Part shown: piece by piece, positions 45,001 through 63,998 of the stretch
Numbering within the stretch: the stretch's first letter is position 1
Layout of the letters: the number at the start of each line of letters is the position of its first letter
Assembly (NCBI GenBank): GCA_046563655.1
Contig: JAJCTO010000009.1
Coordinates: forward strand, 1 to 64,000
From: Yuukianura sp. NJ FZ-2021
Lineage: Eukaryota
Direction: 5' to 3'
DNA: 64,000 nucleotides
Program-made: the position numbers and the translations under genes
The notes under the pieces: model-generated
Told to the model about the DNA's origin: nothing
What the model saw: only the letters and a program-made list of their open reading frames with translations
The model's database searches: none

Positions 45001-47789
45001 CGCTGAAAAGCTAGAAAAACTGCGAAACATTTGGCGCTATACAGTACTATTCGACCGTTCAGATTTCCATGAAAAATGTGACATGTCAATCCGTCCACCA
45101 ACGTCCATAAGCGTAATTACACAAATTTGACCCAATGGAGAGCACATAGAATACCGCCCAGAATTGCAAAGATTCAACGCTTTCGCAGTGGTTTTTCCGG
45201 AGCAAGAGTGTGGGAAAATATTGTGAACCTCAAAGCGATTCCGCTGAGCTAACGCTGAGAAGCTAGAAAAACTGCGAAACATTTGGCGCTATACAGACCT
45301 ACTATTCGACCGTGCAGATTTCCATGAAAAATGTGACAACTCAATCCGTCCGTCAACGTTCATAAGCGTAATTACACAAATTTGACCCAATGGAGAGCAC
45401 ATAGAATACCGCCCAGAATTGCAAAGATTCAACGTTTTCGCAGTGGTTTTTCCGGAGCAAGTGTGTGGGAAAATTTTGTGAACCTGAAAGCGATTCGGTT
45501 TAGCTAACGCTGAAAAGCTAGAAAAACTGCGAAACATTTTTCGCTATACAGACCTACTATTCGACCGTGCAGGTTTCCATAAAAAATGTGACATGTCAAT
45601 CCGTCCACCAACGTCCATAAGCGTAATTACACAAATTTGACCCAATGGAGAGCACATAGGATACCGCCCAGAATTGCAAAGATTCAACGTTTTCGCAGTG
45701 GTTTTTCCGGAGCAAGTGTGTGGGAAAATTTTGTGAACCTGAAAGCGATTCGGTTTAGCTAACGCTGAAAAGCTAGAAAAACTGCGAAACATTTTTCGCT
45801 ATACAGACCTACTATTCGACCGTGCAGGTTTCCATAAAAAATGTGACAACTCAATCCGTCCGCCAACGTTCATAAGCGTAATTACACAAATTTGACCCAA
45901 TGGAGAGCACATAGAATACCGCCCAGAATTGCAAAGATTCAACGTTTTCGCAGTGGTTTTTCCGGAGCAAGGGTGTGGGAAAATTTTGTGAACCTGAAAG
46001 CGATTCGGTTTAGCTAACGCTGAAAAGCTAGAAAAACTGCGAAACATTTGGCGCTATACAGTACTATTCGACCGTTCAGATTTCCATGAAAAATGTGACA
46101 TGTCAATCCGTCCACCAACGTCCATAAGCGTAATTACACAAATTTGACCCAATGGAGAGCACATAGGATACCGCCCAGAATGGCAAAGATTCAACGTTTT
46201 CGCAGTGGTTTTTCCGGAGCAAGTGTGTGGGAAAATTTTGAGAACCTGAAAGCGATTCGGTTTAGCTAACGCTGAAAAGCTAGAAAAACTGCGAAACATT
46301 TGGCGCTATACAGTACTATTCGACCGTTCAGATTTCCATGAAAAATGTGACATGTCAATCCGTCCTCCAACGTCCATAAGCGTAATTACACAAATTTGAC
46401 CCAATGGAGAGCACATAGGATACCGCCCAGAATGGCAAAGATTCAACGTTTTCGCAGTGGTTTTTCCGGAGCAAGTGTGGGAAAATTTTGAGAACCTGAA
46501 AGCGATTCGGTTTAGCTAACGCTGAAAAGCTAGAAAAACTGCGAAACATTTGGCGCTATACAGTACTATTCGACCGTTCAGATTTCCATGAAAAATGTGA
46601 CATGTCAATCCGTCCACCAACGTCCATAAGCGTAATTACACAAATTAGACCCAATGGAGAGCACATAGGATACCGCCCAGAATTGCAAAGATTCAACGTT
46701 TTCGCTGTGGTTTTTCCGGAGCAAGTGTGTGGGAAAATTTTGTGAACCTGAAAGCGATTCGGTTTAGCTAACGCTGAGAAGCTAGAAAAACTGCGAAACA
46801 TTTGGCGCTATACAGACCTACTATTCGACCGTGCAGATTTCCATGAAAAATGTGACAACTCAATCCGTCCGCCAACGTTCATAAGCGTAATTACACAAAT
46901 TTGACCCAATGGAGAGCACATAGAATACCGCCCAGAATTGCAAAGATTCAACGTTTTCGCAGTGGTTTTTCCGGAGCAAGTGTGTGGGAAAATTTTGTGA
47001 ACCTGAAAGCGATTCGGTTTAGCTAACGCTGAGAAGCTAGAAAAACTGCGAAACATTTGGCGCTATACAGACCTACTATTCGACCGTGCAGATTTCCATG
47101 AAAAATGTGACAACTCAATCCGTCCACCAACGTTCATAAGCGTAATTACACAAATTTGTCCCAATGGAGAGCACATAGAATACCGCCCAGAATTGCAAAG
47201 ATTCAACGTTTTCGCAGTGGTTTTTCCGGAGCAAGGGTGTGGGAAAATATTGTGAACCTCAAAGCGATTCCGCTGAGCTAACGCTGAGAAGCTAGAAAAA
47301 CTGCGAAACATTTGGCGCTATACAGACCTACTATTCGACCGTGCAGATTTCCATGAAAAATGTGACAACTCAATCCGTCCGCCAACGTTCATAAGCGTAA
47401 TTACACAAATTTGACCCAATGGAGAGCACATAGAATACCGCCCAGAATTGCAAAGATTCAACGTTTTCGCAGTGGTTTTCCGGAGCAAGGGTGTGGGAAA
47501 ATTTTGTGAACCTTAATGCGATTCGGTTTAGCTAACGCTGAAAAGATAGAAAAACTACGAAACATTTGGCGCTATACAGACCTACTATTCGACCGTGCAG
47601 GTTTCCATAAAAAATGTGACATGTCAATCCGTCCACCAACGTCCATAAGTGTAATTACACAAATTTGACCCAATGGAGAGCACATAGGATACCGCCCAGA
47701 ATGGCAAAGATTCTACGTTTTCGCAGTGGTTTTTCCGGAGCAAGGGTGTGGGAAAATATTGTGAACCTCAAAGCGATTCCGCTGAGCTA
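1..47789. repeat. Tandem satellite array, ~255-bp monomer (250-256 bp variants), about 187 copies, extending beyond the left window edge
   Basis: The unit (...GGCGCTATACAGACCTACTATTCGACCGTGCAGATTTCC...GAAAAACTGCGAAACATTT) recurs head-to-tail with a 255-bp step (ORF track starts 743, 998, 1253...). Monomers differ by a few recurrent SNPs/indels. The array ends mid-monomer at ...GCTGAGCTA (47789). Confidence 0.99.
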
Positions 47790-47904
47790 TGTGGCGATTG
47801 GACAGCAAGTCCCCACTGCCAATCGCCAGGATGGAGAGTGTACGAAGTGGCTCGTGTCTCACTCCCATCACATACACCAGTTCCCTTCCCTGACAAGCCA
47901 GATT

Positions 47905-47981
47905 GGGACCTGATAGCTCAATGGTTTAGAGCAATCTCCCCGGATTGGAGAAGGTTGTGGGTTCGAGTCCCACTCGGTTCC
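47905..47981 (+). ncRNA. tRNA-derived cloverleaf with Pol III A and B boxes inside the TRIM LTR (non-canonical anticodon loop)
   Basis: A box TAGCTCAATGG, D stem GCTC/GAGC, stem TCTCC/GGAGA with loop CCGGATT, T arm GTGGG-TTCGAGT-CCCAC (B box), acceptor-like GGGACC(T)GA/TCGGTTCC. Confidence 0.85.
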
Positions 47982-47990
47982 TTATTTTTT
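47982..47990 (+). terminator. Pol III oligo-T terminator after the tRNA-like cassette
   Basis: TTATTTTTT directly follows the acceptor stem; the equivalent TTATTTTT follows the second copy (61761-61768). Confidence 0.6.
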
Positions 47991-48039
47991 CTGGCTTGTC
48001 CTTTGTTTCCCTCTTTATCCCTCCCCCAGTCCTCACATA

Positions 48040-48057
48040 TGGTGCCGAAAGACGGTT
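48040..48057 (+). promoter_or_regulatory. Primer-binding site of the TRIM (tRNA-Phe-like 3' end complement)
   Basis: TGGTGCCGAAAGACGGTT, 2 nt after the LTR end. TGGTGCCGAAA is complementary to the TTTCGGCACCA end of animal tRNA-Phe. Confidence 0.85.
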
Positions 48058-48080
48058 GTTCCGAGCCGTCGGAGGACTTC

Positions 48081-48093
48081 GGGGGCGGGGTGG
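48081..48093 (+). promoter_or_regulatory. Polypurine tract of the TRIM
   Basis: GGGGGCGGGGTGG immediately precedes the TG of the second LTR copy. Confidence 0.75.
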
Positions 48094-48176
48094 TGTGGCG
48101 ATTGGACAGCAAGTCCCCACTGCCAATCGCCAGGATGGAGAGTGTACGAAGTGGCTCGTGTCTCACTCCCATCACA
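48094..48176 (+). repeat. Truncated 3' LTR of the TRIM
   Basis: Identical to 47790-47872 (the match runs 2 nt further), then unrelated sequence. Confidence 0.9.
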
Positions 48177-48245
48177 TATGATGAGTGAGGTGAGCCACTT
48201 CTACCCCCGTATTTCTCAAATTGCCCCAGGTCAACAAGCGCAAAA

Positions 48246-48309
48246 GGACAATTACGGTTGCGCGGTACAGTTATGATGGACAATTACGGTTGCGCGGTAC
48301 AGTTGTGAT
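48246..48309. repeat. 32-bp tandem duplication
   Basis: GGACAATTACGGTTGCGCGGTACAGTT(A/G)TGAT x2, one mismatch. Confidence 0.9.
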
Positions 48310-48593
48310 GCGTCTGGGACCGTCTTGTTGTCTTGTACAAAATACAAAGACTGCTATGTGTCATTTAGTGCACTTAGGATTTAATGCTAGTGCATTGCCT
48401 TGCTTATTAGAAACTGAAGCAAAAAATGATGTCAGTGTGAATAGCCAAAGTGTCTTATGTTAAGCAAGGGAAGTTTCCGGGATGAAGGGAAGGTTGCCGA
48501 CTGTCAATGTCAAAACGGAGTTTCTTTCATTGCCTGTGACTAGGTTATTATGTTACTCCTCCGCTGTTAATTTACTTCACATTTTTTGTAAAA

Positions 48594-48835
48594 ATGGGAA
48601 AAAATTCTAGAACTTGGAGGCAAATTAAGGAGGAGAGGAAGAACCGGCTACAAGTAAGTATTTTATGCAATCTTGAAAAACAAATTAAACGTAATAAGTG
48701 TTTCAATATATTATTTAGCACCGTGGAGACTCGTTATCATCATCCTCATCGAGGGAAATCTCTCTAAATCGACGACTACCGGAAGGACGAGGAGAGCAGC
48801 AGAAGGCAAACGGCGGAACACCTGTATGTTTGTAA
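48594..48835 (+). CDS. Possible small spliced ORF (exons 48594-48653 and 48719-48835), basic/Ser-rich peptide of unknown function
   Basis: AAAATGG start, CAA|GTAAGT donor, AT-rich 65-bp intron ending TTATTTAG. The spliced frame reads MGKNSRTWRQIKEERKNRLQ-HRGDSLSSSSSREISLNRRLPEGRGEQQKANGGTPVCL. No homology recognised. Confidence 0.35.
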
Positions 48836-48996
48836 ATATATTTACCGTAAATGACTAAACGTACATTTGAGTTATGCTTACGCGGGGTTTTGATAAAAGC
48901 CTGTAAGCATAATTCTCATTCCAAAATTAAGCGGGTAGTCCATTTGTTGCTTAGCAACGCACGTGTATACTTACCTTTTGACGTCAGTACCCTATT

Positions 48997-49037
48997 ACTA
49001 CTACTATTATTATTAATCCTAAAGTAGTAGTAGTAGT
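48997..49037. other. Back-to-back ACTACTACT and (AGT)5 motifs resembling Polinton/Maverick termini
   Basis: ACTACTACT at 48997-49005 and AGTAGTAGTAGTAGT at 49023-49037, 17 bp apart. Polinton TIRs often begin with AGT repeats. Confidence 0.4.
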
Positions 49038-49122
49038 TTAAATTTTAAATGAAGCGGTGACTTAAAAGTCATTATTGGTACTAGACCGATTAAAATCTAG
49101 TTAATTAGTATTGAAGGGTTAT

Positions 49123-49180
49123 TTAGCTTAAAGGTTATTTCTTTTCCTATTAAATTTAAAGTCATGGGTTCGAATCCCAT
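49123..49180 (+). promoter_or_regulatory. Degenerate Pol III type-2 promoter (A-box-like sequence plus B box in a T-arm hairpin)
   Basis: TAGCTTAAAGG about 40 bp upstream of ATGGG-TTCGAAT-CCCAT; no full cloverleaf. Confidence 0.45.
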
Positions 49181-49243
49181 ATTCGGTGTCAAAAAAAAAT
49201 AATTCTTTAATAATTAAAAAAGTCTAGCATGTTCTTTGTTAGT

Positions 49244-49501
49244 ATTGAGCATATTATCTATCAGCATCACTCCTCGATATCCGTTTGTATGTTAGAGTTA
49301 TTCAAGCAACTTGTTAAGTTGGAGTACTTCAAATTTCTGTTCATCCGCATGCATCTTCCGCGGTACCGCGGTATCACGGTACCGTGGAAGATGCATGCGG
49401 ATGAACAGAAATTTGAAGTACTCCAACTTAACAAGTTGCTTGAATAACTCTAACATACAAACGGATATCGAGGGGTGATGCTGATAGATAATATGCTCAA
49501 T
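49244..49501. repeat. Long inverted repeat (foldback): 116-bp arms and a 26-bp structured centre
   Basis: 49244-49359 is the reverse complement of 49386-49501 with one mismatch seen. Centre: GCGGTACCGC-GGTATC-ACGGTACCGT. Confidence 0.95.
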
Positions 49502-49510
49502 CTTGCTCGT

Positions 49511-49984
49511 TGTTCGTTGACCTCCGTGACCTCAGATGAGAAATATGGGAGAGCAAGTGAATGACTAGTGGTGAAGCCACAGAGAGATCAAGACATCGAG
49601 AATTTACGTTACTTTGTTTATTGAATGTTTGTAAGAATAAGAAAAGAAGACGGTTAAAAAGCTGAAAGTAGACTGAACTGAATGAAACTCAAAAATGAAA
49701 AATGACCCTGAGTGACTGTGTGTCACTAGTATTTATAACCTAAGAAAAGCAAACTGAATTGTAAAGGAGGAGTGAGTATTCCTAGACCTTAGTAATGTAA
49801 AGAAACACCAGAGAGAACACAATGTAAATTAGTGTGTGTAAGTTAGAAGTTTAGAAGGGAAGAAACGAGTGTTTCTACTGCCTGTAACTTTAAGTAAAAA
49901 TAACCTAATTCTAAGAATTGAAATGCATGAGAAATGTATACTAAATTAGCCTAGGATTATGAACCGTCGGTTTACCCGCCAACA
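49511..49984 (-). repeat. BEL/Pao 3' LTR (474 bp), copy A
   Basis: TGTT...AACA termini; PPT AGGGGTGGCGGCA directly upstream on the minus strand; matches 56441-56914 and resembles 62774-63217. Confidence 0.93.
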
Positions 49985-50402
49985 TGCCGCCACCCCTGAC
50001 ACGATCGTGTCGGAAAAATACGTTATACATTTGTAAGGACTACCAAGTCCTCGGCCAAAATCACTCTTACTGTAGGTCGGATGGGTCATTCGGGCAGTGC
50101 GAAACGTCACCCTCAACCTCCGTCAAAACTAAGAGGAGACCCAATTTGCGTGACCTCCTACAGCTCAAGCGATTCTAACCAAAGGGCCTCAGCAAACCGC
50201 TTACAAATGTGTGGGAAACTCTGTGACATGCTGATTGATAAATCGATCAGTTAAACTTAAAATTACAAATTGAATGTTGTGAAAAACTTAAAACTAAAAA
50301 GTTAAGATCTTAACTAAATGAAAAGATGACTTAACCTAAATTAGCCTTAAAATTAAGATAAATTAAAATTAAAATGAATTAAAATTGAAGTACAAGACAA
50401 AA

Positions 50403-52366
50403 TTAAGTTGAAGAGAGCTCGTCGTTTGATAGAAGTGGGACAATTTTGACGATTGGGCGTTGGAGTTCTCCGAGGGCCGTACGAAGAGTGACGACTCTGA
50501 CTAGTCCGTCTGGACCAGGATGAACGTTGATGACGCGAGCCAGTTTCCACTTTAGAGGGGGTAAATTGTCATCTTTGATGGCCACAAGGTCTCCGATTGT
50601 CAAATTGTTGGTTTTCTTGGTCCACTTGACTCGTTGTTGAAGGGATGTGAGGTATTCGAGAGACCAGACCTTCCAGAACGTTTGGAATAGCTTCTCCTGC
50701 AACTGCCAACGTGAGAGGCGATTGACCTTGACATCAGCATGATCTGGTTGAGGAGCGGCGAGGAGAGGTCTGCCGACGAGGAAGTGGCCAGGTGTGATCA
50801 CACCTAAATCGGATGTGTCACTGGACATCGGTAGAAGAGGTCGGGAGTTCAGCGCTGCTTCCGCTTGGCAAAGAATTGTAGCAAATTCCTCAAGCGTTAA
50901 AGTGGTGGTCCCAATGATCCTCTTCAAATGGAATTTGACAGAACGTACTGCTGCCTCCCAGATTCCACCATGATGAGGAGCAGACGGAGGGTTAAAATGC
51001 CAATGTGTCTGTGATTCTGCAAAGTAAGAAGAAACTTCCGAGTTGAACTGGTGAGAGTTCACCAAATCCATCAACTCGTTATTAGCACCTACAAAATTTG
51101 TACCACAATCAGAATACAAATGTAGTGGGTTACCCCGACGTGATACAAACCGTTTGAATGTCCCGAGGAAGGATTCGGTGGAGAGTTCGGTTCCGAATTC
51201 CACATGAACGGCTTTCGTAGAGAGGCAGATAAAAATGCAGAAGTAGCCTTTGAATTGTTTCTGGCCTCGTCCTTTGACAGATTGGAGTGTAAATGGACCA
51301 GCGTAGTCCAAACCAGTGTGATGAAACGTAGGTGACATCGTGACTCTTGGTTGAGGCAGTGTACCCATGAGTTGTGTTGCCGTCTTTTGTCTCAACAGCT
51401 TACATCTGAGGCAGCGAGAGATGACAGATTTGATCAAATCTCGTGCGTGGACAATCCAATAGTCTTGGCGTAGAAGTGAGAGCAGAAGACGATTCCCAGC
51501 ATGATGATGCTTGTGGTGGTAATGCTGGACGAGTAGTTTAGTCACTGAGGACTTCCCGTGAATAATCAGAGGGTGTTTGGCAGCTTCTGGGAGCGATGCC
51601 AGGTGCAGCCGACCACCAACCCGAAGAGATCCATCCGAATCCAAAAATGGGGAAAGAGAGAGCAACGCACTGGATTGACTGACTTTACCCTTTTTAGTCA
51701 GAGACTGGATCTCCGGTTGGAAGTCTTCCTGCTGCGACAGTTGAATGACCTTCCGAGTGGCCATTCTGTAGAACTCGACTGAGCGTGCCGTCGGTGCCGA
51801 CTTCTGCTGAGCTCTCAGCACAAACCCGAGAAGTGACCCGATGACACGTAGGAGTTGCAAAAATGACGAATACCTGTTCAAAATTGGAAAAGACAATTGT
51901 ATGGTTAGGACCTTGACCTTACGTTCTTCCTTGAGATGCTCAGATGAGAGTGTTTGTGAATTGGAAAACGAAGGCAAGTGCGGTTGTGACAGAAACTCCG
52001 GTCCGTTCCACCAGAGCTGATTGTCGACGAGATCGTTAAGGGGGATCCCTCTTGTTCCGCAGTCGGCAGGGTTGAGTGTCCCTGGGATGAAATGCCAAGA
52101 TTCGACTGTTGTGAGCTCTTGGATTTGCGAAACCCGATTGGCCACGAATGGGACCCAGCGACGAGAAGAAGATGAGATCCACCGCAAAGTAATTTCACTG
52201 TCAGTCCAACAGTAGACATGACAGTTTGGTTCCAAACTAGATAAAAGAAAAGAAATTAGTTTCGATAATAACAAAGCACCACAAAGTTCTAGCCTAGGTA
52301 TGCTCTGTGCTTTGACAGGAGCTACTTTAGTCTTGGAAGTGAGAATTCGTGATATTGGTAGATCGT
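50403..52366 (-). CDS. pol: 5'-truncated BEL/Pao pol: RNase H C-terminus, integrase (zinc finger, DDE core), C-terminal DUF5641-like domain
   Basis: WTDS, NPADCGTRG, H..HH.G/C..C, GLDYAGP, SDCGTNF, PPSAPHHGGIWE, LNSRPL, W..EYL..LQ.R.KW, GPDGLVRVV motifs typical of Pao/BEL. Confidence 0.93.
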
Positions 52367-53184
52367 AGGTTTTATACCTGGAGTTCGATAGTCCTCCGGT
52401 TCCGAAACCCTTTCATCATCGTCTACGTTATCACTAATATCGTTTTCCAAGTCATTGCCCTCATCGTCTTCCTCCTCCTCTTCTTCATCTTCATTTTCCT
52501 CTTCTGCCAAAACCGTTTGACCAACCATCGGCGTCCTCTGCGAGAGTAACGTGACAGTGCTCAAATTCAGCTTGCTGCGAATGTGAATTCCTAGTAATTC
52601 CTTTGGAATGTGCACCTTCTTCAAAATATAAATAAATGTTCTAATTCCTTTAGGAGGAGTCACTTTTGCCGGAGGTTTAAGAACATATGTCAGCAACTCA
52701 ATGATGTTTGCTCCGCTTCTGGGCACACCTTTATATGAAACCTGACCAGCTTCATCCCAGGATATGTCGTTGAATGCAGAACTCGAAAGAATTTGCATGA
52801 TTTTTAAAGCAACTTCCTGGTACTTTTTGGTAGAAATTTGGCAAGATGACTGTTGTAGAGTAACTGGTCCACTGTTGTTTCAGCATCGTTTTTAGGTATT
52901 TCTTCCGGTTTTTGTGGTTCGCTAGTTAATTTTTCAGATTCGACGCGAAGTGGAATGTTCGACAAGGCCGAAATATTTTCATGTAAACCTTTTACCATGC
53001 TATTGAACAAAGCTAGTTTGATGTCGTCTGAAACCGAATTCCATTTTAGAATATTTGTGGCAGCAGCGTGTTTTCGGTGTACGAGTTGGACAGCGGCAGA
53101 TTTGTGTAAAAGTTGAGGCGCCCGTTGTAATGCAATGAGTTTTTCGTACTCTAAATGTGGTATTAGCTTCATTTTCTTAGACAT
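52367..53184 (-). pseudogene. Polinton-type hypothetical protein; one frameshift at ~52826, C-terminus cut off by the BEL duplicate
   Basis: ORFs 52804-53187 and 52322-52798 join (PKKYQEVALKIMQIL) if one A is added to an A5 run. ISWDEAGQV..KG....ANIIELL resembles a segment I associate with Polinton ORFs; acidic tail. Confidence 0.55.
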
Positions 53185-53531
53185 CACAAACCAACGATAT
53201 GACTCAGGGCGTTCGCTGCGAGACCACCAAGTATAGACAAAGCAGGCGTAACCAGCAAAGGTAGAAACCCACCTTTTTGTATCAGGAAATCTTTTTTCTT
53301 TTTAATTGAAAACTTTTTTGCTAGATTTCGGATGCTGACCTTGTGTCGTCGAAGTTTTTTCTTATGTGCCCTGTTCAATGGAACGTTCCCAAGCAGTGTA
53401 TTTAGTGCGACTTCAGAAAGGGCGTCAATGTTGTCTTTTGTAGCTTTTTTTATTAAATTTCTACGCTTAGACGGTTTACACTTCTTCACCTCTTCCAGAA
53501 ACGTTCTGTTCCTTACTAACCGCTTTGTCAT
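53184..53531 (-). CDS. Small basic virion core-like protein with a candidate adenain cleavage site and a hydrophobic C-terminal peptide
   Basis: 115 aa, K/R-rich, LIQKGG|FLPLLVTPALSILGGLA; its stop overlaps the next ATG (TGATG). Confidence 0.75.
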   Translation of the reverse strand: MTKRLVRNRTFLEEVKKCKPSKRRNLIKKATKDNIDALSEVALNTLLGNVPLNRAHKKKLRRHKVSIRNLAKKFSIKKKKDFLIQKGGFLPLLVTPALSILGGLAANALSHIVGL

Positions 53532-53542
53532 TCTGAAGTACT

Positions 53543-54263
53543 TTAACTTGGCACGTAAACAATGTGCTCTTCCGTAGGAAAAATCCCTGACTGAATTCGT
53601 AAATTATCGTGACAGCTTGGATGCAAGTTTAAAAACAAGTAGGAATAAGGCTTCCGAGTTGCCTCTTCATATGCTGTTAAAATCGCACTAGGCTTTCTTG
53701 GATTAAGTTGTCTACTCAGGTACATCACTTGCGAAGGGAAGGAGGGAGTTTTGCAAATCGTCATGTAATGTGTATTCAAACGAATATCCCTCGCATATTT
53801 CCCCTGAGGCAGCAGATTTTGCGACAAGAATATAACGGATATTGACCTGAAATTCCAAAGTAATGTGTGAACGACGAAATTCTTGTGATAATTTACAATG
53901 AACAATGTGTAATTAGCTATGGTGAACACCGCAAGTAAAAAGTTCTTGAACTGCCTTATCCTTTAGTGAATCGGCCATCTGGTCGTCAATGATAAGTAAC
54001 GTATTCGGTGCATAGACTTCATCCAACTTCAAACCTTGTATGCACCTGACTCTTGAGTTGGATGACTTCATTACGTCATATCCACTTTGATATACTTTAT
54101 AAAAAACGATTACGTCATCAATTCTTGGCGTAACCATAAGATCCAGGTTTTCAATTAATTTGCAGACAAACGTTGTTTTCCCCGACATCGTCCCACCAGC
54201 AACAATGTATGTAAACGGGTGACGCAATTGAATGGTGTTGAACTCATACGTGTCCTTTTCCAT
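53543..54263 (-). CDS. FtsK/A32-like DNA packaging ATPase, split by an apparent 70-bp intron (53847-53916)
   Basis: HPF...GGTMSGKT (Walker A), LLIIDD (Walker B), LFTCGVHH..SISVIFLSQN, R.IRLN.HY, PYSYL..NL. Its ATG overlaps the upstream stop (TAATG). Confidence 0.9.
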
Positions 54264-55021
54264 TAGGTGGATACTTTTCTGAAATGAAGGGTCAATGTGA
54301 CCTGACCTTTGTCGATTGGTAACTCCTCGCCAAATTCGTCGCACAAGAGAATTGAGATGATGTCGAATTCTGTTCGAGAAACTGGTAGGTAAAACGGATG
54401 TGCAAAAGTTTGAGTTACTGCTTGTCCCTCGTTTCCAATGATATTAACCATACGTAGAAGAGGAACAAACGAAGAACCGACGATTTGAGATTCGATTATG
54501 ACACAATAAATAAACATGTGGTACCTCCCTCCAAGCAAATCGGGTCTGAATGGTGCTATGTAATAAGCTGACGATGATCCTTCCGGTAGGTTAGAGTTAA
54601 ATTCGGTTTCCCCATTAAAACCCAAAATATCAGAAAGTTTGTCGCTCAGCTCAATAGAATATCCACCACCAACCTTCAAACTAATACGACATTTTACTGC
54701 ATAATATTTTAGGTTACAAGGCACTTCGTGTTTTCGGAAGAACCTATTCACTGTCTGAACTATATCTTCAACACCAACATAATGAAGTGTTGGAAGCTCT
54801 ATTTTTCCAGCTCTATTAACTCCAGTAAACCTAATTACGTTATCTTGTTCAATTCCTGTTATAGTTTTTATTGAACAAATATAGGTTAATTCGGTGAGCC
54901 CAACTTCGTATGACGAGGGTTCAAGTTTCACTTTTGATGGAAGTTTTATCCTATAGTTTGCCGTTCGGTTATCAGCGAAATAACGTGAGCCGTTTGACGG
55001 AAGTGTAGCGTAGAAGGCCAT
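54263..55021 (-). CDS. Polinton minor capsid protein (penton-like)
   Basis: Intact 252 aa; FYATLPSN...N....Y.I.LP....L....YEVGL.EL.Y N-terminus and IYC.II..QIVG....PLLR...Y.PV....D..G......LHFR C-terminus. Confidence 0.82.
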   Translation of the reverse strand: MAFYATLPSNGSRYFADNRTANYRIKLPSKVKLEPSSYEVGLTELTYICSIKTITGIEQDNVIRFTGVNRAGKIELPTLHYVGVEDIVQTVNRFFRKHEVPCNLKYYAVKCRISLKVGGGYSIELSDKLSDILGFNGETEFNSNLPEGSSSAYYIAPFRPDLLGGRYHMFIYCVIIESQIVGSSFVPLLRMVNIIGNEGQAVTQTFAHPFYLPVSRTEFDIISILLCDEFGEELPIDKGQVTLTLHFRKVST

Positions 55022-55029
55022 GTCGTTAA

Positions 55030-55948
55030 CTAGTTCTTTATCTTGCTGAGTTCTTGACTGTAATAGATACCAGAAATTAGATCACCATTCAGGTCTTTGA
55101 CACGGTACGTCACAGGAATGGAATTTATAACTTCAGCAATTTCGAAAACTTCGGTTGTAAATGCTGGCCAATAACCTTTCTCAAATATCTTCTTTGTTTT
55201 ATCTAAACGGACTCTGTCGTACAATTTTAAAGAAGGCTTGCGATTTGGGTTCATATACAAATCCTTGTAGCATTCCAGCCATACGTCCATTTCGTTATCT
55301 TTATCGACATTGCTCGGCGCGTGATTCGTACGAGAATTCACCCTGCTATTGTATGTCTTCAATAGTAACGGTAGTGCTTCAATGTATCTTTTCTCTCCGG
55401 TTTGTGTCAGATGCTTAGAAATGGCAGTACAAATTGTTCTGTTAAATCTTTCCACGACAGATGAGCCAAAGTCTGAGAAGTTATGATACATTAGTATTCC
55501 CTGTGACTTGGCCCATTTCTTGAAAGCTGCCGACCAAAATTCACCACCTTGGTCACACTCGAGTGTTGTTGGCCGTCTTCCAGACGACAGAATTTTTTAA
55601 ATGCTTGAATGACTTCACAGGTTTTTTGGACCTCATGGGAACAGCAAATCCGAATTTGGATAAGACATCTATCGCAGTCAGAAGACACGAATATCCATCG
55701 TTCTCGTCAGTATACTTTGGCAAGAAGACAATGTCTGCTTGCCATAGGTAGTTTAGTCCAGGTGAAATCACTCGCCTCCTACGGAACTTGCATCTACGAC
55801 TTTTGTGACGAGTGTATGAGTCTTGTGACTGCATGAACTTCAAAGCTTCGGATTCTGGAATTCCGCACAACTTACTCAGAACTCTTTTGCTGCCCAAATA
55901 ACCGATTCTTCCTATGCGTTTATACTGTTTTGCAACGTTGGATTTCAT
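55030..55948 (-). pseudogene. Polinton retroviral-like (rve) integrase, with two -1 frameshifts in A runs at ~55625 and ~55595
   Basis: WQADIV, IDVLSKF, CDQGGEF and VVERFNRT catalytic motifs; FEKGY...F..EVF.I and P.TY.VKD.NG....G.YY..EL tail. The frame is open upstream to 55996. Confidence 0.9.
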
Positions 55949-56050
55949 TGTCTTCAATAAAATTTTGAAATATTTATTAATTAACATATATTTCACACAT
56001 TAGTGAATCATAAGTTTATTATTAATATTACATTTGTAATTATTACCCAC

Positions 56051-56440
56051 TTACAAGCAAAGAAGAACTTCCAGAATTTCACAACACTGCACAATTTCCT
56101 GCACCTCAGTACGGATATCGTGGTTGCTACCACTCTCGATGTTGAATGAGTTATCGTACCCAAAGTTAGCATATAAATAGTTTCTAACAAGAGTGTCGTT
56201 TTTAACTAAGTCAATTTCGTCAAATTTACTCAGAATTGTTTCAAACGACTCCCCACTAATCCTGTGAAAGAGATAATACAATGAAAATTGCCCACAAGCG
56301 TTGCTATGCTCAGGTTGTACCCTAAATTTACTCATTCTGATGACATTGCTCTTTGAAAAAGAAAACTGACAAAACTAGTGTTGTAAAATTCAATTGGCAT
56401 GGCACAACTATCGAAAAACTCTACCTCATTACTTGCTCGT
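56051..56440 (-). pseudogene. C-terminal half of an adenain-like cysteine protease, interrupted by the BEL LTR
   Basis: VEFFDSCA motif at ~56400-56425 and VQPEHSNACGQFSLYYL (oxyanion Gln, catalytic Cys); frameshift near 56355; the His-containing N-terminus is missing. Confidence 0.82.
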
Positions 56441-56914
56441 TGTTCGTTGACCTCCGTGACCTCAGATGAGAAATATGGGAGAGCAAGTGAATGACTAGTG
56501 GTGAAGCCACAGAGAGATCAAGACATCGAGAATTTACGTTACTTTGTTTATTGAATGTTTGTAAGAATAAGAAAAGAAGACGGTTAAAAAGCTGAAAGTA
56601 GACTGAACTGAATGAAACTCAAAAATGAAAAATGACCCTGAGTGACTGTGTGTCACTAGTATTTATAACCTAAGAAAAGCAAACTGAATTGTAAAGGAGG
56701 AGTGAGTATTCCTAGACCTTAGTAATGTAAAGAAACACCAGAGAGAACACAATGTAAATTAGTGTGTGTAAGTTAGAAGTTTAGAAGGGAAGAAACGAGT
56801 GTTTCTACTGCCTGTAACTTTAAGTAAAAATAACCTAATTCTAAGAATTGAAATGCATGAGAAATGTATACTAAATTAGCCTAGGATTATGAACCGTCGG
56901 TTTACCCGCCAACA
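56441..56914 (-). repeat. BEL/Pao 3' LTR (474 bp), copy B
   Basis: TGTT...AACA termini, PPT at 56915-56927, matches copy A. Confidence 0.93.
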
Positions 56915-57332
56915 TGCCGCCACCCCTGACACGATCGTGTCGGAAAAATACGTTATACATTTGTAAGGACTACCAAGTCCTCGGCCAAAATCACTCTTAC
57001 TGTAGGTCGGATGGGTCATTCGGGCAGTGCGAAACGTCACCCTCAACCTCCGTCAAAACTAAGAGGAGACCCAATTTGCGTGACCTCCTACAGCTCAAGC
57101 GATTCTAACCAAAGGGCCTCAGCAAACCGCTTACAAATGTGTGGGAAACTCTGTGACATGCTGATTGATAAATCGATCAGTTAAACTTAAAATTACAAAT
57201 TGAATGTTGTGAAAAACTTAAAACTAAAAAGTTAAGATCTTAACTAAATGAAAAGATGACTTAACCTAAATTAGCCTTAAAATTAAGATAAATTAAAATT
57301 AAAATGAATTAAAATTGAAGTACAAGACAAAA

Positions 57333-58972
57333 TTAAGTTGAAGAGAGCTCGTCGTTTGATAGAAGTGGGACAATTTTGACGATTGGGCGTTGGAGTTCTC
57401 CGAGGGCCGTACGAAGAGTGACGACTCTGACTAGTCCGTCTGGACCAGGATGAACGTTGATGACGCGAGCCAGTTTCCACTTTAGAGGGGGTAAATTGTC
57501 ATCTTTGATGGCCACAAGGTCTCCGATTGTCAAATTGTTGGTTTTCTTGGTCCACTTGACTCGTTGTTGAAGGGATGTGAGGTATTCGAGAGACCAGACC
57601 TTCCAGAACGTTTGGAATAGCTTCTCCTGCAACTGCCAACGTGAGAGGCGATTGACCTTGACATCAGCATGATCTGGTTGAGGAGCGGCGAGGAGAGGTC
57701 TGCCGACGAGGAAGTGGCCAGGTGTGATCACACCTAAATCGGATGTGTCACTGGACATCGGTAGAAGAGGTCGGGAGTTCAGCGCTGCTTCCGCTTGGCA
57801 AAGAATTGTAGCAAATTCCTCAAGCGTTAAAGTGGTGGTCCCAATGATCCTCTTCAAATGGAATTTGACAGAACGTACTGCTGCCTCCCAGATTCCACCA
57901 TGATGAGGAGCAGACGGAGGGTTAAAATGCCAATGTGTCTGTGATTCTGCAAAGTAAGAAGAAACTTCCGAGTTGAACTGGTGAGAGTTCACCAAATCCA
58001 TCAACTCGTTATTAGCACCTACAAAATTTGTACCACAATCAGAATACAAATGTAGTGGGTTACCCCGACGTGATACAAACCGTTTGAATGTCCCGAGGAA
58101 GGATTCGGTGGAGAGTTCGGTTCCGAATTCCACATGAACGGCTTTCGTAGAGAGGCAGATAAAAATGCAGAAGTAGCCTTTGAATTGTTTCTGGCCTCGT
58201 CCTTTGACAGATTGGAGTGTAAATGGACCAGCGTAGTCCAAACCAGTGTGATGAAACGTAGGTGACATCGTGACTCTTGGTTGAGGCAGTGTACCCATGA
58301 GTTGTGTTGCCGTCTTTTGTCTCAACAGCTTACATCTGAGGCAGCGAGAGATGACAGATTTGATCAAATCTCGTGCGTGGACAATCCAATAGTCTTGGCG
58401 TAGAAGTGAGAGCAGAAGACGATTCCCAGCATGATGATGCTTGTGGTGGTAATGCTGGACGAGTAGTTTAGTCACTGAGGACTTCCCGTGAATAATCAGA
58501 GGGTGTTTGGCAGCTTCTGGGAGCGATGCCAGGTGCAGCCGACCACCAACCCGAAGAGATCCATCCGAATCCAAAAATGGGGAAAGAGAGAGCAACGCAC
58601 TGGATTGACTGACTTTACCCTTTTTAGTCAGAGACTGGATCTCCGGTTGGAAGTCTTCCTGCTGCGACAGTTGAATGACCTTCCGAGTGGCCATTCTGTA
58701 GAACTCGACTGAGCGTGCCGTCGGTGCCGACTTCTGCTGAGCTCTCAGCACAAACCCGAGAAGTGACCCGATGACACGTAGGAGTTGCAAAAATGACGAA
58801 TACCTGTTCAAAATTGGAAAAGACAATTGTATGGTTAGGACCTTGACCTTACGTTCTTCCTTGAGATGCTCAGATGAGAGTGTTTGTGAATTGGAAAACG
58901 AAGGCAAGTGCGGTTGTGACAGAAACTCCGGTCCGTTCCACCAGAGCTGATTGTCGACGAGATCGTTAAGGG
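57333..58972 (-). CDS. pol: BEL/Pao integrase region (frameshifted from RT-RH by a 1-bp deletion at ~58970)
   Basis: Same protein as the C-terminal part of 50403-52274. Confidence 0.92.
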
Positions 58973-60358
58973 GATCCCTCTTGTTCCGCAGTCGGCAGGG
59001 TTGAGTGTCCCTGGGATGAAATGCCAAGATTCGACTGTTGTGAGCTCTTGGATTTGCGAAACCCGATTGGCCACGAATGGGACCCAGCGACGAGAAGAAG
59101 ATGAGATCCACCGCAAAGTAATTTCACTGTCAGTCCAACAGTAGACATGACAGTTTGGTTCCAAACTAGATAAAAGAAAAGAAATTAGTTTCGATAATAA
59201 CAAAGCACCACAAAGTTCTAGCCTAGGTATGCTCTGTGCTTTGACAGGAGCTACTTTAGTCTTGGAAGTGAGAATTCGTGATATTGGTAGATCGTTATTA
59301 AATGTCCTGAGGTAGACCACTGCACAGTAGGCTCTTTCGGAGGCATCCGAAAATCCGTGTAATTCCATTCGTTGGTAATTTTGAGTAATCACACAAAGTG
59401 GAATGGCAATGTCACTAAGACATGACAATGATGAGCCAAGGTGGGTCCACCTTTCTACCAAGTCCTCGGGAAGGTTATCATCCCAACCAATTCCCAAGGT
59501 CCAAAGACTCTGAAAGAAAATCTTTACGGAGACGACGTATGGAGCGAGTAGCCCCAGTGGATCAAATAACTTTGCAATGTCACTCAAAATGGTACGTTTT
59601 GTTATTACCGAGGTTTGGTCAAACCTAAATCCAGTGAAATGGAGGAGATCAGAATTTGGAGTCCATTGAACGCCCAATGCCTTTGTGCTTGATCCCTCCG
59701 CCAGTGATTGAGTGGAGATCTCCACTAGGTGTGAAGGAATCTCCTGCAGGACTTCCGGAGAGTTTGAAGTCCACTTAGTGATTGACAGTTGTCCACGAGC
59801 GAGTAGTTTGGTCAATTGGTGGTAAGTTTCCACCACTTTTGGAACTGATGAGTCACCACCTAGAAAATCATCTACATAAAAACGTTCAATTATTGCTTGC
59901 CTGGCCAAGGGAAAGTGATCTCCTTCGTCCACAGCAAGTTGATTGAGGGCCCGAATGGCACCGAATGGAGCCGAGGAGGTTCCATAAGTGATTGTTTTGA
60001 GCCTATACTCCCGAATAGGCTGATCAGGAGTTGGCCGCCAAAGGATCCGCTGGAAGTTGGAGTCTGAATCTAAAACTGAGAACTGGCGATACATTTTTGT
60101 TATGTCAGCCTTTAAGACGATTGGATCCAATCGGAATTTGATTAGATGCGTAAACAAATCAGGTTGAATAGTTGGCCCTACCATTAGGCACTTATTCAGT
60201 GACAAACCTGAATTTGATTCACACGAACCATCAAAAACCACACGAAGTTTGGTTGTTGTACTATCCTCCTTCAAAACGAAGTGATGTGGGAGGTAGTACG
60301 TCTGGATGGATCCATCCTTGAATTGTTCTCCTTCTTCCGATGGTGGGACTTGTTCCAT
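58973..60358 (-). CDS. pol: BEL/Pao reverse transcriptase and RNase H
   Basis: YYLPHH.V, KLRVVFD, ADITKMYRQ, TYGTSSAPF, FYVDD, KALGVQW, FDPLG, LHGFSDASERAY, IPRLELCGA. Confidence 0.95.
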
Positions 60359-60363
60359 GTGAC

Positions 60364-61200
60364 CTAAATTGAGATAATCATTTTGAACTTTACGTACTCA
60401 CTTTTGTGTTGCGGGAGTCGATCCAGCCGACGTTCAGTGTGGTGGAGTCTCCTTAATGCAATTGATCGTGATGATCCGAGTTCCGAAATGTTGGGTTTGA
60501 ATGGAAGTGGAACAATGTATCTTCCATCCTGTGTACGAGAGTGGTGAGTTGTAAAGTGGTTCTCTGCGTCACTCTCCACTTATGTCAACTGCATCCGAGT
60601 TGGGACGTGATCGAGTTCCCACAAGCGTTGGATGGCTCCATCCAGAGAGACTGTGTGGCAGTGGGCCGTGTATGACTGCACTGGTGGAGTATGGACAGGT
60701 CCCATGACCACCCAACCGAAGTGGCACGAGCAAGCAGCGGGTTGATCAACCCGAGAAGAAAGAGTCTGACCAGTAAAGATTCGGTGTGTGACCTCAGCCC
60801 CAAGTAGAATGTCAACTTCCCTCGGGTCAATGTATCTGGGGTCAGCCAAGGTCAGATTCTGAAGGTGGGTCCATTCTTTCCAGGTGTCACCACACCTAAA
60901 TGAGGGTAGTTGACCTGTGGTCTAACCTGGGAGAGAACAAGAGCTTCCACCGACAAAGTAAAATCATTACACATAGATTTGATTTTCAGAATTGTTTTTC
61001 CCTTTGCTTTACCAACTGTTGTGGCACCAACTCCGTTGATGGTGATGTTGGACTTTGTCTGTGAGAGACCAAGTCGCTGACAGCACCGATCGGTGCTAAA
61101 GGAAACCTCAGCTCCTGGATCCAGAAGGACACGGCAGGTTTGGTAGTCTCCAGTAGCATCCATTATGTAGACTTCTGCCGTTCCAAGGAGGACACCGTAG
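60364..61200 (-). pseudogene. BEL/Pao aspartic protease and linker, several frameshifts/stops
   Basis: RVLLDPGAEVS, ADP.Y..P..VDILLG, FGWVVMG and DGRYIVPLPF split over ORFs 60852-61163, 60580-60849 and 60364-60579. Confidence 0.88.
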
Positions 61201-61584
61201 CCGGAGTTGTGGTTTACAACTGGCTGTGGCTGTGGGAACAGAAGTAGACAGATTAGTCAAATGAGCAATAGGATTGGTTACCTGGTTTGTGAAAGGAACA
61301 AATTCGTTGTTAATATGCAAAAGAGTGTGATGTGGCTTCTGACGCACACGACAGCGAGACTTGGAATGACAGTTCTTGGGAGTATGAGCAAGACCAAGAC
61401 AGTTGAAGCATCGATGCTGAGCCTTGGCTGTGTCCATCCGTTGAGCAATGGTCATGGCATTGAACTTTCCACATTTGAATAGTGGATGTGGCTCTGAGCA
61501 AAGAACGCATTTTGCAGTGTTCACTGCATGAACCTTCTTACGGTCAACGGACTTTTGAGGTTGTTTTGTTGACGCAGATGAGAT

Positions 61585-61819
61585 TGTGGCGTTTGGGAAC
61601 AGTCCCACTCCCAACCGCCAAGGATAGAGGTGTATGGAATGGACAGTGCCTGTTATGGTAGCCTTCCGATTCTATCCTGTGCAGAATGACTCGATAGCTT
61701 AAGGGTTAGAGCTGTCTCCCCGGATTGGAGAAGGCGTGGGTTCGAATCCCACTCGGTCACTTATTTTTCTGCACTGTCATCGTGTGTCTCTCAAGCTATG
61801 TGAGCCCTGATCCCTCACA
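61585..61819 (+). mobile_element. Solo LTR (235 bp) of a related tRNA-containing TRIM family, with 4-bp TSD AGAT
   Basis: TGTGGCG...CCTCACA flanked by AGAT (61581-61584 and 61820-61823). Removing it and one TSD restores gag in frame (LQSI-SSASTK). Confidence 0.93.
61687..61759 (+). ncRNA. tRNA-derived cloverleaf inside the solo LTR
   Basis: TGAC(T)CGA TA GCTT AAGGGTTA GAGC TG TCTCC CCGGATT GGAGA AGGC GTGGG TTCGAAT CCCAC TCGGTCA, followed by TTATTTTT. Confidence 0.85.
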
Positions 61820-62752
61820 AGATGCTCTGGAGACCACGGATATGTTGCTCAAGGAAGTCCTTGACCTCCTTGTAGGTAGGAACGTTCGTTCCTGACAGTT
61901 GGATGGCGAATTCCCGTTTTGTGTCAGGGTCCAACTTTTCCATTATGGTAAAGACCAGAACATCGTCCCATTGGTCAACGTTACGGTTAAGATTCCGTAA
62001 CTGTCTCACGCACTGGTCGAAAGTGTCAACCAGGTTCCTCAGTGAAGTCGCATTTTCCTGAAACAGTTTAGAAAGATTAAACAATTTTCGCAACAATGAA
62101 AATGCGATCTCGCGCGTGTTATTGTATCGCTCGATACACAAGTCCCAAGCATCCTGAAAATTAGCGTTAGTGATTACGAATGGCGAGACTATCTTTAGTG
62201 CATCGTCCTTGAGAGATGACTTTAGATACTGCAGCTTTCGCAACCAGACAAACCACCACTGTTGACGATGGAAGCCTCGAATTGATCTCGGAAGGATGGC
62301 CAGTCTTCGTAACTGCCAGAGAAAGTAGGAAGGTCAAGCTTAGGTAACTTGACCTCAGACGATGGATGAACGACTGACGGAGCAGAGGTCACGGTGGATC
62401 CACTCTGGGTGTTGGAGTCCAGCTTCGCTAACTCTCCATTGATAAGACCATGGATCTTAACAATCATGTCATCAATCTGTTCTGAAGCTTCAAGTTGAGG
62501 CATTAGATCATCCTCATTAGAAATGTACATTAGGATTTCATTTTGAATGGATTGAACACTACCTTCGATCTTTTCAGTTTGATCCAGCAGTTTGTGGAGT
62601 TCAAACTGGGTAGGCGATGAGTCGGAGTTACTTACGTCCCTTAGGATTTTCGCCAGTTTGTGCTTCTGGGCTGTTCGCTTAAGGACGAGAGAGAGGACTT
62701 CCGCCATGTTGAATGTGAAGTAGTGTTAGTCTGGGTCCAGGCTTTCGGCAGT

Positions 62753-62770
62753 AACCGTCTTTCGGCACCA
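62753..62770 (-). promoter_or_regulatory. Primer-binding site of the BEL/Pao element
   Basis: Minus strand TGGTGCCGAAAGACGGTT, 3 nt inside the 5' LTR. Confidence 0.9.
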
Positions 62771-62773
62771 AAA

Positions 62774-63217
62774 TGTTCGTTGACCTCCTTGACCTCAGAT
62801 GAATGTGGGAGAGCAAGTGAATTGTGGTGAAGCCACAGAGAGATCAAGACATCGAGAATTACGTTATTTAGTTTATTGAATGTATGTAAGAATAGAGAGA
62901 AGACGGTTACTGAATGAAACTCAAAATTGGAATGACCCTGAGTGACTGTGTGTCACTAGTATTTATAACCTAAGAAAAGCACACTGAATTGTAAAGGAGG
63001 AATGAGTATTCCTAGACCTTAGTAATGTAAAGAAACACCAGAAAGAGAACACAATGTAAATTAGTGTGTGTAAGTTAGAAGTTGAGAAAAGGAAGAAACG
63101 AGTGTTTCTAATCCCTGTTACTAAAGTAAAAATAGCGTTATTCTAAGAATTGAAATGCATGAGAAATGTAAAGTAAAATTAGCCTAAGATTATGAACCGT
63201 CGGTTTACCCGCCAACA
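62774..63217 (-). repeat. BEL/Pao 5' LTR (444 bp), diverged from the 3' LTR
   Basis: Same termini as 56441-56914 but about 30 bp shorter, with multiple substitutions. Confidence 0.92.
62872..62967 (-). promoter_or_regulatory. LTR Pol II promoter and polyA signals
   Basis: Minus strand TATAAATA (62960-62967), initiator-like TCATTC (62930-62935) and AATAAA (62872-62877); all are also present in the 3' LTRs. Confidence 0.6.
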
Positions 63218-63998
63218 TTGACTGGGCGGAATTGGAGCAAAGGACAAAAGGACAGCAAATTCAGTGGATCTTCAATCCACCGGCAGCACCTTGGTGGGGT
63301 GGATGGTGTTAGCGACTTATTCGGTCGCTCAAGGACCTACTCAAGAGGATGCTCGGGTTCCGGAAGTTGAACAAAGTTGAGCTCGAGACCTGCTTATGTG
63401 AAGTAGAGGACACCATCAACCACAGGCCGCTGACTTTCGTGACGGAAGATGTGGATGATCTGATCCCTCTAACCCCAGCCATGTTTATTCACAATCTTCC
63501 GGTAAGTGAGACTCCAGAATCTCAAACTGTAACCGGTTCTGATTTCAACAGGAAGAGCAAGAGGCTGGACAAAATGTTGGAGGAGTTACGACAACGTTTT
63601 TGTAAGGAGTACTTGGGACTTCTTGTGCAACGAGGAAAACAGAAAACCAGAGAATTTGTCGTTGGTGACTGCGTCCTGATTGGCAGAGAGGACGTTAAGC
63701 GGATCCTTTGGCCCATGGGGATAATTCAAGAATTGATCACTGGAAAAGATGGGGTTCATCGGGTGCCAAATTGCGGACGAAGAATGGGATTTTGGTTCGC
63801 CCACTACAGAGACTTTTTCCGTTGGAATTTGACCGAGACTACCCGACTGGTGAACTTTCCCTTGACTTGGAACTGGAAATGGCTGCTCAAGACTCGGATG
63901 AAGAGGAAGACGTGGAAACAGAAGATCCGGAGCAACCAGTGACAACGACTACTCGAAGTGGACGCACTGTTCGTAAGCCCGAACTGTACTGCGACTAA
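63218..63998 (+). pseudogene. pol: Integrase C-terminal fragment of a second, different BEL/Pao family
   Basis: WIFNPPAAPWWGGW, INHRPLT, PLTPAMF, F.KEYL..L, GKDGVHR, RPLQRLFPLE, TRSGR; in-frame TAG at ~63310 and a frameshift at ~63765. Confidence 0.9.

Follow-up and report, generated by a model that had tools for sequence, protein, structure and literature searches.

[quoted passage not shown] We draw here and in the following on excerpts of that paper. The elements range in length from 311 to 1263 bp, are flanked by 4-bp target duplications in animals, also occur as solo LTRs and in tandem arrays, and have been described from six animal phyla, fungi and one plant. Together with Ajax and the plant TRIM Cassandra, which has a 5S rRNA-derived unit in its LTR and for which Pol III transcripts have been shown, they constitute TRIMp3 (PMC10886601). 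In Helenus, conservation is found mainly around boxes A and B, a functional tRNA is considered unlikely, and transcription by Pol III is unproven. Kojima argues for multiple origins of the group, which is named by its anatomy, and proposes that it arose via insertion of a SINE2 element into the LTR of a TRIM (PMC10886601). For animal Helenus, the paper lists Lys, Leu, Trp, Arg, His, Ile, Pro, Glu and Ser as primers, and Gypsy as the only match.

Here, we describe two tRNA-like units within a window of 64,000 nucleotides (contig JAJCTO010000009.1 of Yuukianura sp. NJ FZ-2021, positions 1 to 64,000), which a first-pass annotation had singled out as a non-decoding tRNA mimic borne by LTRs. The units are real and were correctly seen, but the annotation did not recognise that such a class had already been published in 2024 (Helenus/TRIMp3; PMC10886601). 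Very probably, both units belong to the LTRs of a miniature LTR retrotransposon that is non-autonomous, present in high copy number and of the Helenus (TRIMp3) type. As in Helenus, each LTR contains a tRNA-derived unit in sense orientation, equipped with boxes A and B, that cannot serve as a tRNA; the very short internal part holds a PBS and a purine tract, and a 4-bp duplication, a solo LTR, the tandem order LTR-internal part-LTR and high copy number are all observed. The difference lies in a tRNA-Phe-type PBS that is shared with a BEL/Pao element here, whereas PMC10886601 reports Gypsy and other primers for animals. In an exact-motif text search, as distinct from an alignment, the anticodon-arm equivalent, the A-box region, the LTR start block and the PBS were absent from the published Helenus LTR consensuses (supplement FASTA of PMC10886601); several motifs were missing from this file altogether, and the others occurred only in internal parts or unrelated contexts. 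Given the multiple origins and the anatomy-based name of the group, this lack of exact matches to published families does not exclude membership in Helenus. The BEL/Pao-type PBS, the tRNA-Phe primer and the well-kept cloverleaf look new, although these are modest points.

Other known systems share part of this anatomy. Cassandra follows the same principle, namely a TRIM LTR with a small-RNA-derived Pol III promoter and terminator, but it differs in its 5S unit, its plant hosts and its demonstrated Pol III transcripts, whereas the unit described here is tRNA-derived and known from sequence alone; within the window, Rfam yielded no 5S rRNA match, either at the gathering score or at E values up to 1. 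The tRNA-derived SINEs (SINE2) are likewise non-autonomous and high-copy, with a degenerate tRNA head as an internal Pol III promoter. They rely, however, on LINE machinery and possess a 3′ tail but no LTRs, PBS or purine tract, while here a T-run follows directly after the tRNA part. Finally, genuine cytoplasmic tRNA genes have in common with our units the cloverleaf, the canonical T arm with its B box, the D arm with its A box and the T-run terminator; the units depart from them in C33, U37, a 2-base spacer, a mismatched or bulged acceptor stem and their embedding in a mobile repeat.

Two related LTRs from separate insertions

Copy 1 of the tRNA-like unit (47905-47982, plus strand) sits in the 5′ LTR of a TRIM. 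This LTR, LTR1 (47790-48037, plus strand), is complete with 248 bp and reads TGTGGCG...CCTCACA at its ends. On direct reading, its 5′ end contains a hairpin formed by a 9-bp inverted repeat, GGCGATTGG and CCAATCGCC (47793-47827, plus strand). Two bases past the end of LTR1 lies the 18-base PBS TGGTGCCGAAAGACGGTT (48040-48057, plus strand), which together with a hairpin and the purine tract GGGGGCGGGGTGG (48081-48093, plus strand) makes up a non-coding internal part of 56 bp. The purine tract adjoins the next LTR, of which the first 85 bases are present (48094-48178, plus strand; 100% or 85/85 identical to 47790-47874) before it breaks off. From these parts, the length of the element can be inferred as 248 + 56 + 248 = 552 bp, its 3′ LTR being broken off and the window containing no full copy; because of this truncation, its target duplication is not readable.

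The surroundings of this element are rich in other repeats. A 255-bp satellite with 187.7 copies and 97% matches (1-47779) takes up three quarters of the window and ends about 10 bases before LTR1. Just past the truncated LTR, there is a multi-copy stretch with a 33-bp tandem duplication (48246-48310; 97%). At about 49127-49191 lies a decayed third tRNA-like piece, which is called by neither ARAGORN nor Rfam; in it, TTAGCTTAAAGG resembles an A box and GGTTCGAATCC (49167-49177) is an exact B box, with A9 and no T-run behind it.

Copy 2 (61686-61761, plus strand) is located in LTR2 (61585-61819, plus strand), which is 235 bp long and bears a 4-bp target duplication, AGAT, on both sides (61581-61584 and 61820-61823). 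It is inserted in the minus-strand gag ORF of a BEL/Pao element, between a part with DUF1759 (61818-62333) and a part with two CCHC knuckles. Given its own AGAT duplication and its location in this ORF, LTR2 is a solo LTR of a diverged subfamily and not the partner of LTR1. Thus, the two LTRs are separate insertions, one within a TRIM and the other one solo, which the first-pass annotation had not recognised. They had been described as barely alignable outside their ends and the tRNA-like cassette, yet 74 of 116 columns upstream of the unit are identical, with the first ~60 bases being well kept, as are 30 of 51 columns downstream of it; in the unit itself, the count is 63 of 77. The hairpin at the LTR start falls within the best-conserved upstream block and retains eight of its nine pairs in LTR2 (61588-61620). 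The units occupy the same place in both TG...CA repeats, with homologous flanks on either side.

Further copies are found in public contigs. We aligned contigs of two DNA runs (X1 and X4) and two metatranscriptomes (X6 and X7) that are at least 80% alike to positions 47780-49240 (1,461 bases) and obtained 180 records from X1, 69 from X4, three from X6 and two from X7. Exactly at 47790, contigs from other copies depart from the window sequence (as loose ends in three records of X4 and one of X6), which confirms the start of the LTR. Summed depth, which does not equal copy number, amounts to 2,073-14,326 over the LTR versus 22 in the unique flank for X1, where it is highest in the bin of the LTR-start hairpin (47793-47827), and to 36-830 versus 94 for X4, where the ratio stays below 10. 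The LTR unit of the TRIM is clearly multi-copy. Moreover, past 47993, the loose ends of 11 records of X1 and eight of X4 are similar to LTR2 in its downstream part, so both subfamilies are multi-copy. The order of internal part, LTR, internal part and LTR start is seen in one contig of X6. Contigs from the two RNA libraries, X6 and X7, which contribute small shares, cross the T-run and end by 48171; as contigs, they cannot show transcription, its starts and ends, or CCA. The same alignments reveal an insertion or deletion difference between the assembly and the samples, in that 487 bases (48266-48752) are replaced by 15 other letters in contigs of X1 and X4; in X1, the 487 bases are themselves repeated at low copy number.

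We also scanned metagenomes for the combination of the anticodon-arm equivalent and the T arm. All 45 loci obtained were chance matches, with an ARAGORN tRNA in none of them (0/45), and these mostly prokaryotic and viral collections are uninformative on the host. The same applies to a scan of viral contigs, where a single locus was found, again a chance match without a tRNA.

The cloverleaf and its middle arm

ARAGORN calls both units on the plus strand, at 47906-47982 and 61687-61760, and labels each of them as 'Ser gga'. Likewise, both surpass the gathering score of the Rfam tRNA model (29 bits), copy 1 with 45.6 and copy 2 with 39 bits. The minimum free energy fold of copy 1 is a cloverleaf, and fold energies are ordinary in comparison with shuffled sequences (z of -0.6 to -1.0, about -0.9). 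The A-box-like motif of copy 1, TAGCTCAATGG (47914-47924, plus strand), fits the TRGCY...YGG criterion given in PMC10886601; it has the form TAGCT...TGG in this copy and TAGCT...GGG in copy 2. The B box of copy 1, GGTTCGAGTCC (47960-47970, plus strand), is an exact match, and box B, GGTTCGANTCC, is exact in copies 1 and 2 (61739-61749 in the latter). In total, the window contains three exact B boxes, compared with an expectation of 0.08. A T6 run (47985-47990, plus strand) in LTR1 and a T5 run (61764-61768) in LTR2 come after the units; judging from its sequence, the former is likely to be a Pol III terminator and may mark the border between R and U5.

tRNAs that decode have U33, a purine at position 37 and one base at position 26; a functional tRNA gene further has a regular acceptor stem of 7 bp and a body that agrees with its isotype. 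The equivalent of the anticodon arm, TCTCC/CCGGATT/GGAGA, is predicted by cmscan and RNAfold as a 5-bp stem with a 7-base loop (47935-47951, plus strand, in copy 1; 61715-61731 in copy 2). Within this loop, position 33 is a C and position 37 a U, and the spacer between the D and anticodon stems comprises two bases, AA in copy 1 and TG in copy 2, which appear as an insertion in cmscan. Since C33, U37 and the 2-base spacer break established tRNA rules, the tRNA-like RNAs cannot decode. A functional tRNA is also at odds with the mismatch or bulge in the acceptor stem, where cmscan finds one non-pair per copy, and with a 'Ser' call that comes without a long variable arm. The reading of the unit as a non-decoding part of an LTR is thereby borne out, and the details on which the first-pass annotation had based it agree with our own: the loop without U33 and purine-37, the two nucleotides that separate the D stem from the anticodon stem, and the 20-mer TCTCCCCGGATTGGAGAAGG, which is common to both copies letter for letter.

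Its description of the acceptor stems holds in part. Both had been said to pair best with a bulged U and to differ in a compensatory manner. Both are imperfect, and copy 2 has the bulged U in the RNAfold prediction (UGAC-U-CGA/UCGGUCA), but copy 1 is predicted to form a 6-bp stem, GGGACC/GGUUCC. As to compensation, there is one such change among 22 pairs (G-C to U-A), with 43 of 44 cells pairing; a shuffle control on just two sequences is without power, and 254 of 500 shuffles scored equally high in the register proposed by the annotation.

Between LTR1 and LTR2, the middle arm is identical at 17 of 19 positions versus 104 of 167 in the LTR background (P about 0.01). This does not set it apart from the D and T arms, which harbor the A and B boxes and are identical at 32 of 36 positions (Fisher P = 1), and an identical 20-mer is unremarkable given the identity of the unit as a whole (P = 0.14-0.42). 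The arm is thus retained as well as the promoter boxes are, which agrees with the conservation noted earlier. The conclusion drawn from it, i.e. selection on the RNA beyond the A and B boxes, fares less clearly: it finds support in the excess over the LTR background and in one compensatory pair, but not in the comparison with the D and T arms.

This pair emerges from the public contigs. Among the changes listed, two fall within 47935-47951, namely 47938 C>T (12 contigs of X1 and seven of X4) and 47948 G>A (10 contigs of X1 and five of X4), and they represent the two sides of the anticodon-stem pair 30-40, turning C-G into T-A. In the loose-end consensus (25 records of X1 with an agreement of 0.62, and eight of X4), both changes are present in cis and the loop CCGGATT is kept; three records of X4 carry the loop CCTGATT, in which the palindrome is broken. 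By contrast to the loop, the 5′ strand of the acceptor stem, the 2-base spacer and the variable loop differ among copies, with deletions at 47907, 47913, 47933-47934, 47952 and 47955. The double change in pair 30-40 counts as one inherited event, taken from partial tables and from copies that are at least 80% alike. Together with the kept loop, it lends weak support to structural selection. In our judgment, the chances are even that source copies have been selected to retain a compact cloverleaf including its middle arm, the alternative being simple inheritance.

A primer-binding site shared with a BEL/Pao element

Pieces of BEL/Pao elements with the Pfam domains Peptidase_A17, Integrase_H2C2, DUF5641 and DUF1759 extend over 49.5-63.2 kb on the minus strand. 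One of them, which we call element Y (56441-63218, minus strand), is a broken copy with all four domains and represents a candidate autonomous partner family for the TRIM. Its LTRs (62774-63218 and 56441-56915) are 87% alike and show no matching target duplication. Element Y is old or a product of recombination, and LTR2 interrupts its gag as well. A tblastn search with its gag pieces against 52300-56440 gave no match. Two further repeats were noted in this region. A 2,872-bp sequence is present twice with 99.9% identity (49496-52366 and 56425-59295); because it extends from the integrase/DUF5641 end of a BEL/Pao element through the LTR of that element to 15 bases past it, this is a segmental duplication rather than a pair of LTRs. 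A 258-bp, near-perfect palindrome (49244-49501; 96.9%) adjoins the end of a BEL/Pao LTR.

The link between the TRIM and this family comes from the PBS. Three bases past the 5′ LTR of element Y, and still upstream of where its gag begins, the minus strand (62770-62753) is identical to the PBS of the TRIM in 18 of 18 bases (blastn-short E = 2.4e-4 within the window). The first 11 of these bases correspond to the start of a published oligonucleotide complementary to Drosophila tRNA-Phe(GAA); the remaining seven lie beyond the match to this oligonucleotide and are common to the TRIM and element Y. The purine tracts of both elements share GGGGTGG, and their LTRs start with TGTGGCG in the TRIM and TGTTGGCG in element Y. 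Beyond these starts, a sensitive search detected no similarity between the LTR bodies of the TRIM and of the BEL/Pao element.

On the strength of these sequence matches, we lean towards BEL/Pao as the partner that would supply enzymes to the TRIM, and keep this preference a cautious one because a shared primer tRNA alone could explain part of the PBS match. In our literature searches, no account came up of a TRIM that depends on BEL/Pao and has a tRNA-like LTR. Among the relatives of the BEL/Pao integrase in a protein atlas, Arthropoda is the commonest taxon, which is a weak indication.

Origin and possible role of the tRNA-like units

Given that both units pass the Rfam threshold, are called by ARAGORN and are followed by a T-run, one might take them for true tRNA genes or pseudogenes of the host, with LTR elements inserted beside them by chance. 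This is highly improbable, considering that they belong to a multi-copy family, hold the same place in TG...CA units with homologous flanks on both sides and, in one case, lie with their own 4-bp duplication inside a gag ORF; their C33 and U37, the surplus base separating the D stem from the anticodon stem, the mismatched acceptor and the 'Ser' identity without a long variable arm speak against it as well. We see equally little prospect for a SINE of tRNA origin that a LINE has mobilised. High copy number and a tRNA-derived head containing both boxes would suit such an origin, as would the A9 behind the decayed third piece (~49127-49191). Copies 1 and 2, however, end in a T-run directly after the tRNA-like part instead of an A-rich or LINE-like 3′ tail, and they are found in LTRs with TG...CA ends, in an element with a PBS, a purine tract and the order LTR-internal part-LTR, and with a fixed 4-bp duplication.

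The more demanding question is what keeps the middle arm. It may well have been conserved by descent only, a reading to which we accord a substantial chance, somewhat below even: the unit would be an R region homogenised by strand transfer between co-packaged RNAs, with the arm caught between constrained boxes, the stem pair a hitch-hiking founder change and the RNA without any further role. Such a history is consistent with an arm whose conservation does not exceed that of the D and T arms (17/19 versus 32/36), with the expected occurrence of a 20-base identical run, with a single covarying pair among the changes listed, with the variation of the acceptor 5′ strand, spacer and variable loop among copies, and with the conservation mainly around the boxes that PMC10886601 reports for Helenus. 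It is less easily reconciled with a loop CCGGATT that persists where the spacer, D arm and variable loop differ, and with a stem change that is compensated in cis in the loose-end consensus. Moreover, we know of no base between the two boxes that a type-2 Pol III promoter would need, which also counts against descent alone. At the other extreme, the first-pass annotation saw in the cloverleaf, and especially in its self-complementary CCGG loop, a cis-acting RNA signal for packaging, tRNA-like processing or dimerisation through kissing loops. Both window copies and most variant consensuses have the same loop, and the 56-bp internal part offers little space if a packaging signal were to lie elsewhere than in the LTR; even so, we regard this reading as improbable, with the CCTGATT variant in three records of X4 breaking the palindrome and no motif like CCCGGATTG being present in the BEL/Pao element, its two matches in the window being the two known copies.

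For the Helenus-type TRIM that we prefer, the following mechanism can be pictured. The tRNA-like unit would serve as the internal promoter for Pol III, whose recruitment would fall to the A and B boxes; unit and T-run together would define the R region. Transcription would mostly end at the T5-T6 run, yielding an RNA of ~85-90 nt. Occasional read-through would generate an RNA of the order R-U5-PBS-purine tract-U3-R, ~390 nt in length and ending at the T-run of the 3′ LTR, that could serve as the template for reverse transcription. As the T5-T6 run should halt Pol III ahead of the PBS, the read-through step is an assumption. tRNA-Phe would prime reverse transcription, and the enzymes could be supplied in trans by the BEL/Pao element, for which the identity between the PBS of the TRIM and that of the neighbouring BEL/Pao copy speaks. 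Owing to the odd loop, the additional base that separates the D stem from the anticodon stem, and the imperfect acceptor, the RNA would be of no use in decoding.

In its boldest form, this picture would make the element the first Helenus-type TRIM on BEL/Pao machinery, and one whose cloverleaf and CCGG loop act in cis beyond the promoter, be it in packaging, in kissing-loop dimerisation, or as a fold that attracts Pol III and La but evades aminoacylation and cleavage by RNase P/Z. A cis-acting cloverleaf would account for the retention of the middle arm with a compensatory change, but we consider this combination unlikely.

What the locus implies for the genome and the family is partly practical. 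Units of this type inflate tRNA gene predictions, as in the two 'tRNA-Ser(GGA)' calls described here, which are repeat-borne and non-decoding, and they are likely dispersed in the genome as small Pol III units. If the BEL/Pao link is true, it widens the range of TRIMp3 partners beyond Gypsy in animals and Copia in fungi, and tRNA-Phe joins the TRIMp3 primers. With its disarmed yet conserved cloverleaf and an adjoining terminator, the element provides a compact case for studying how a Pol III-driven LTR element makes a full-length template, and whether the small RNA itself has a role.
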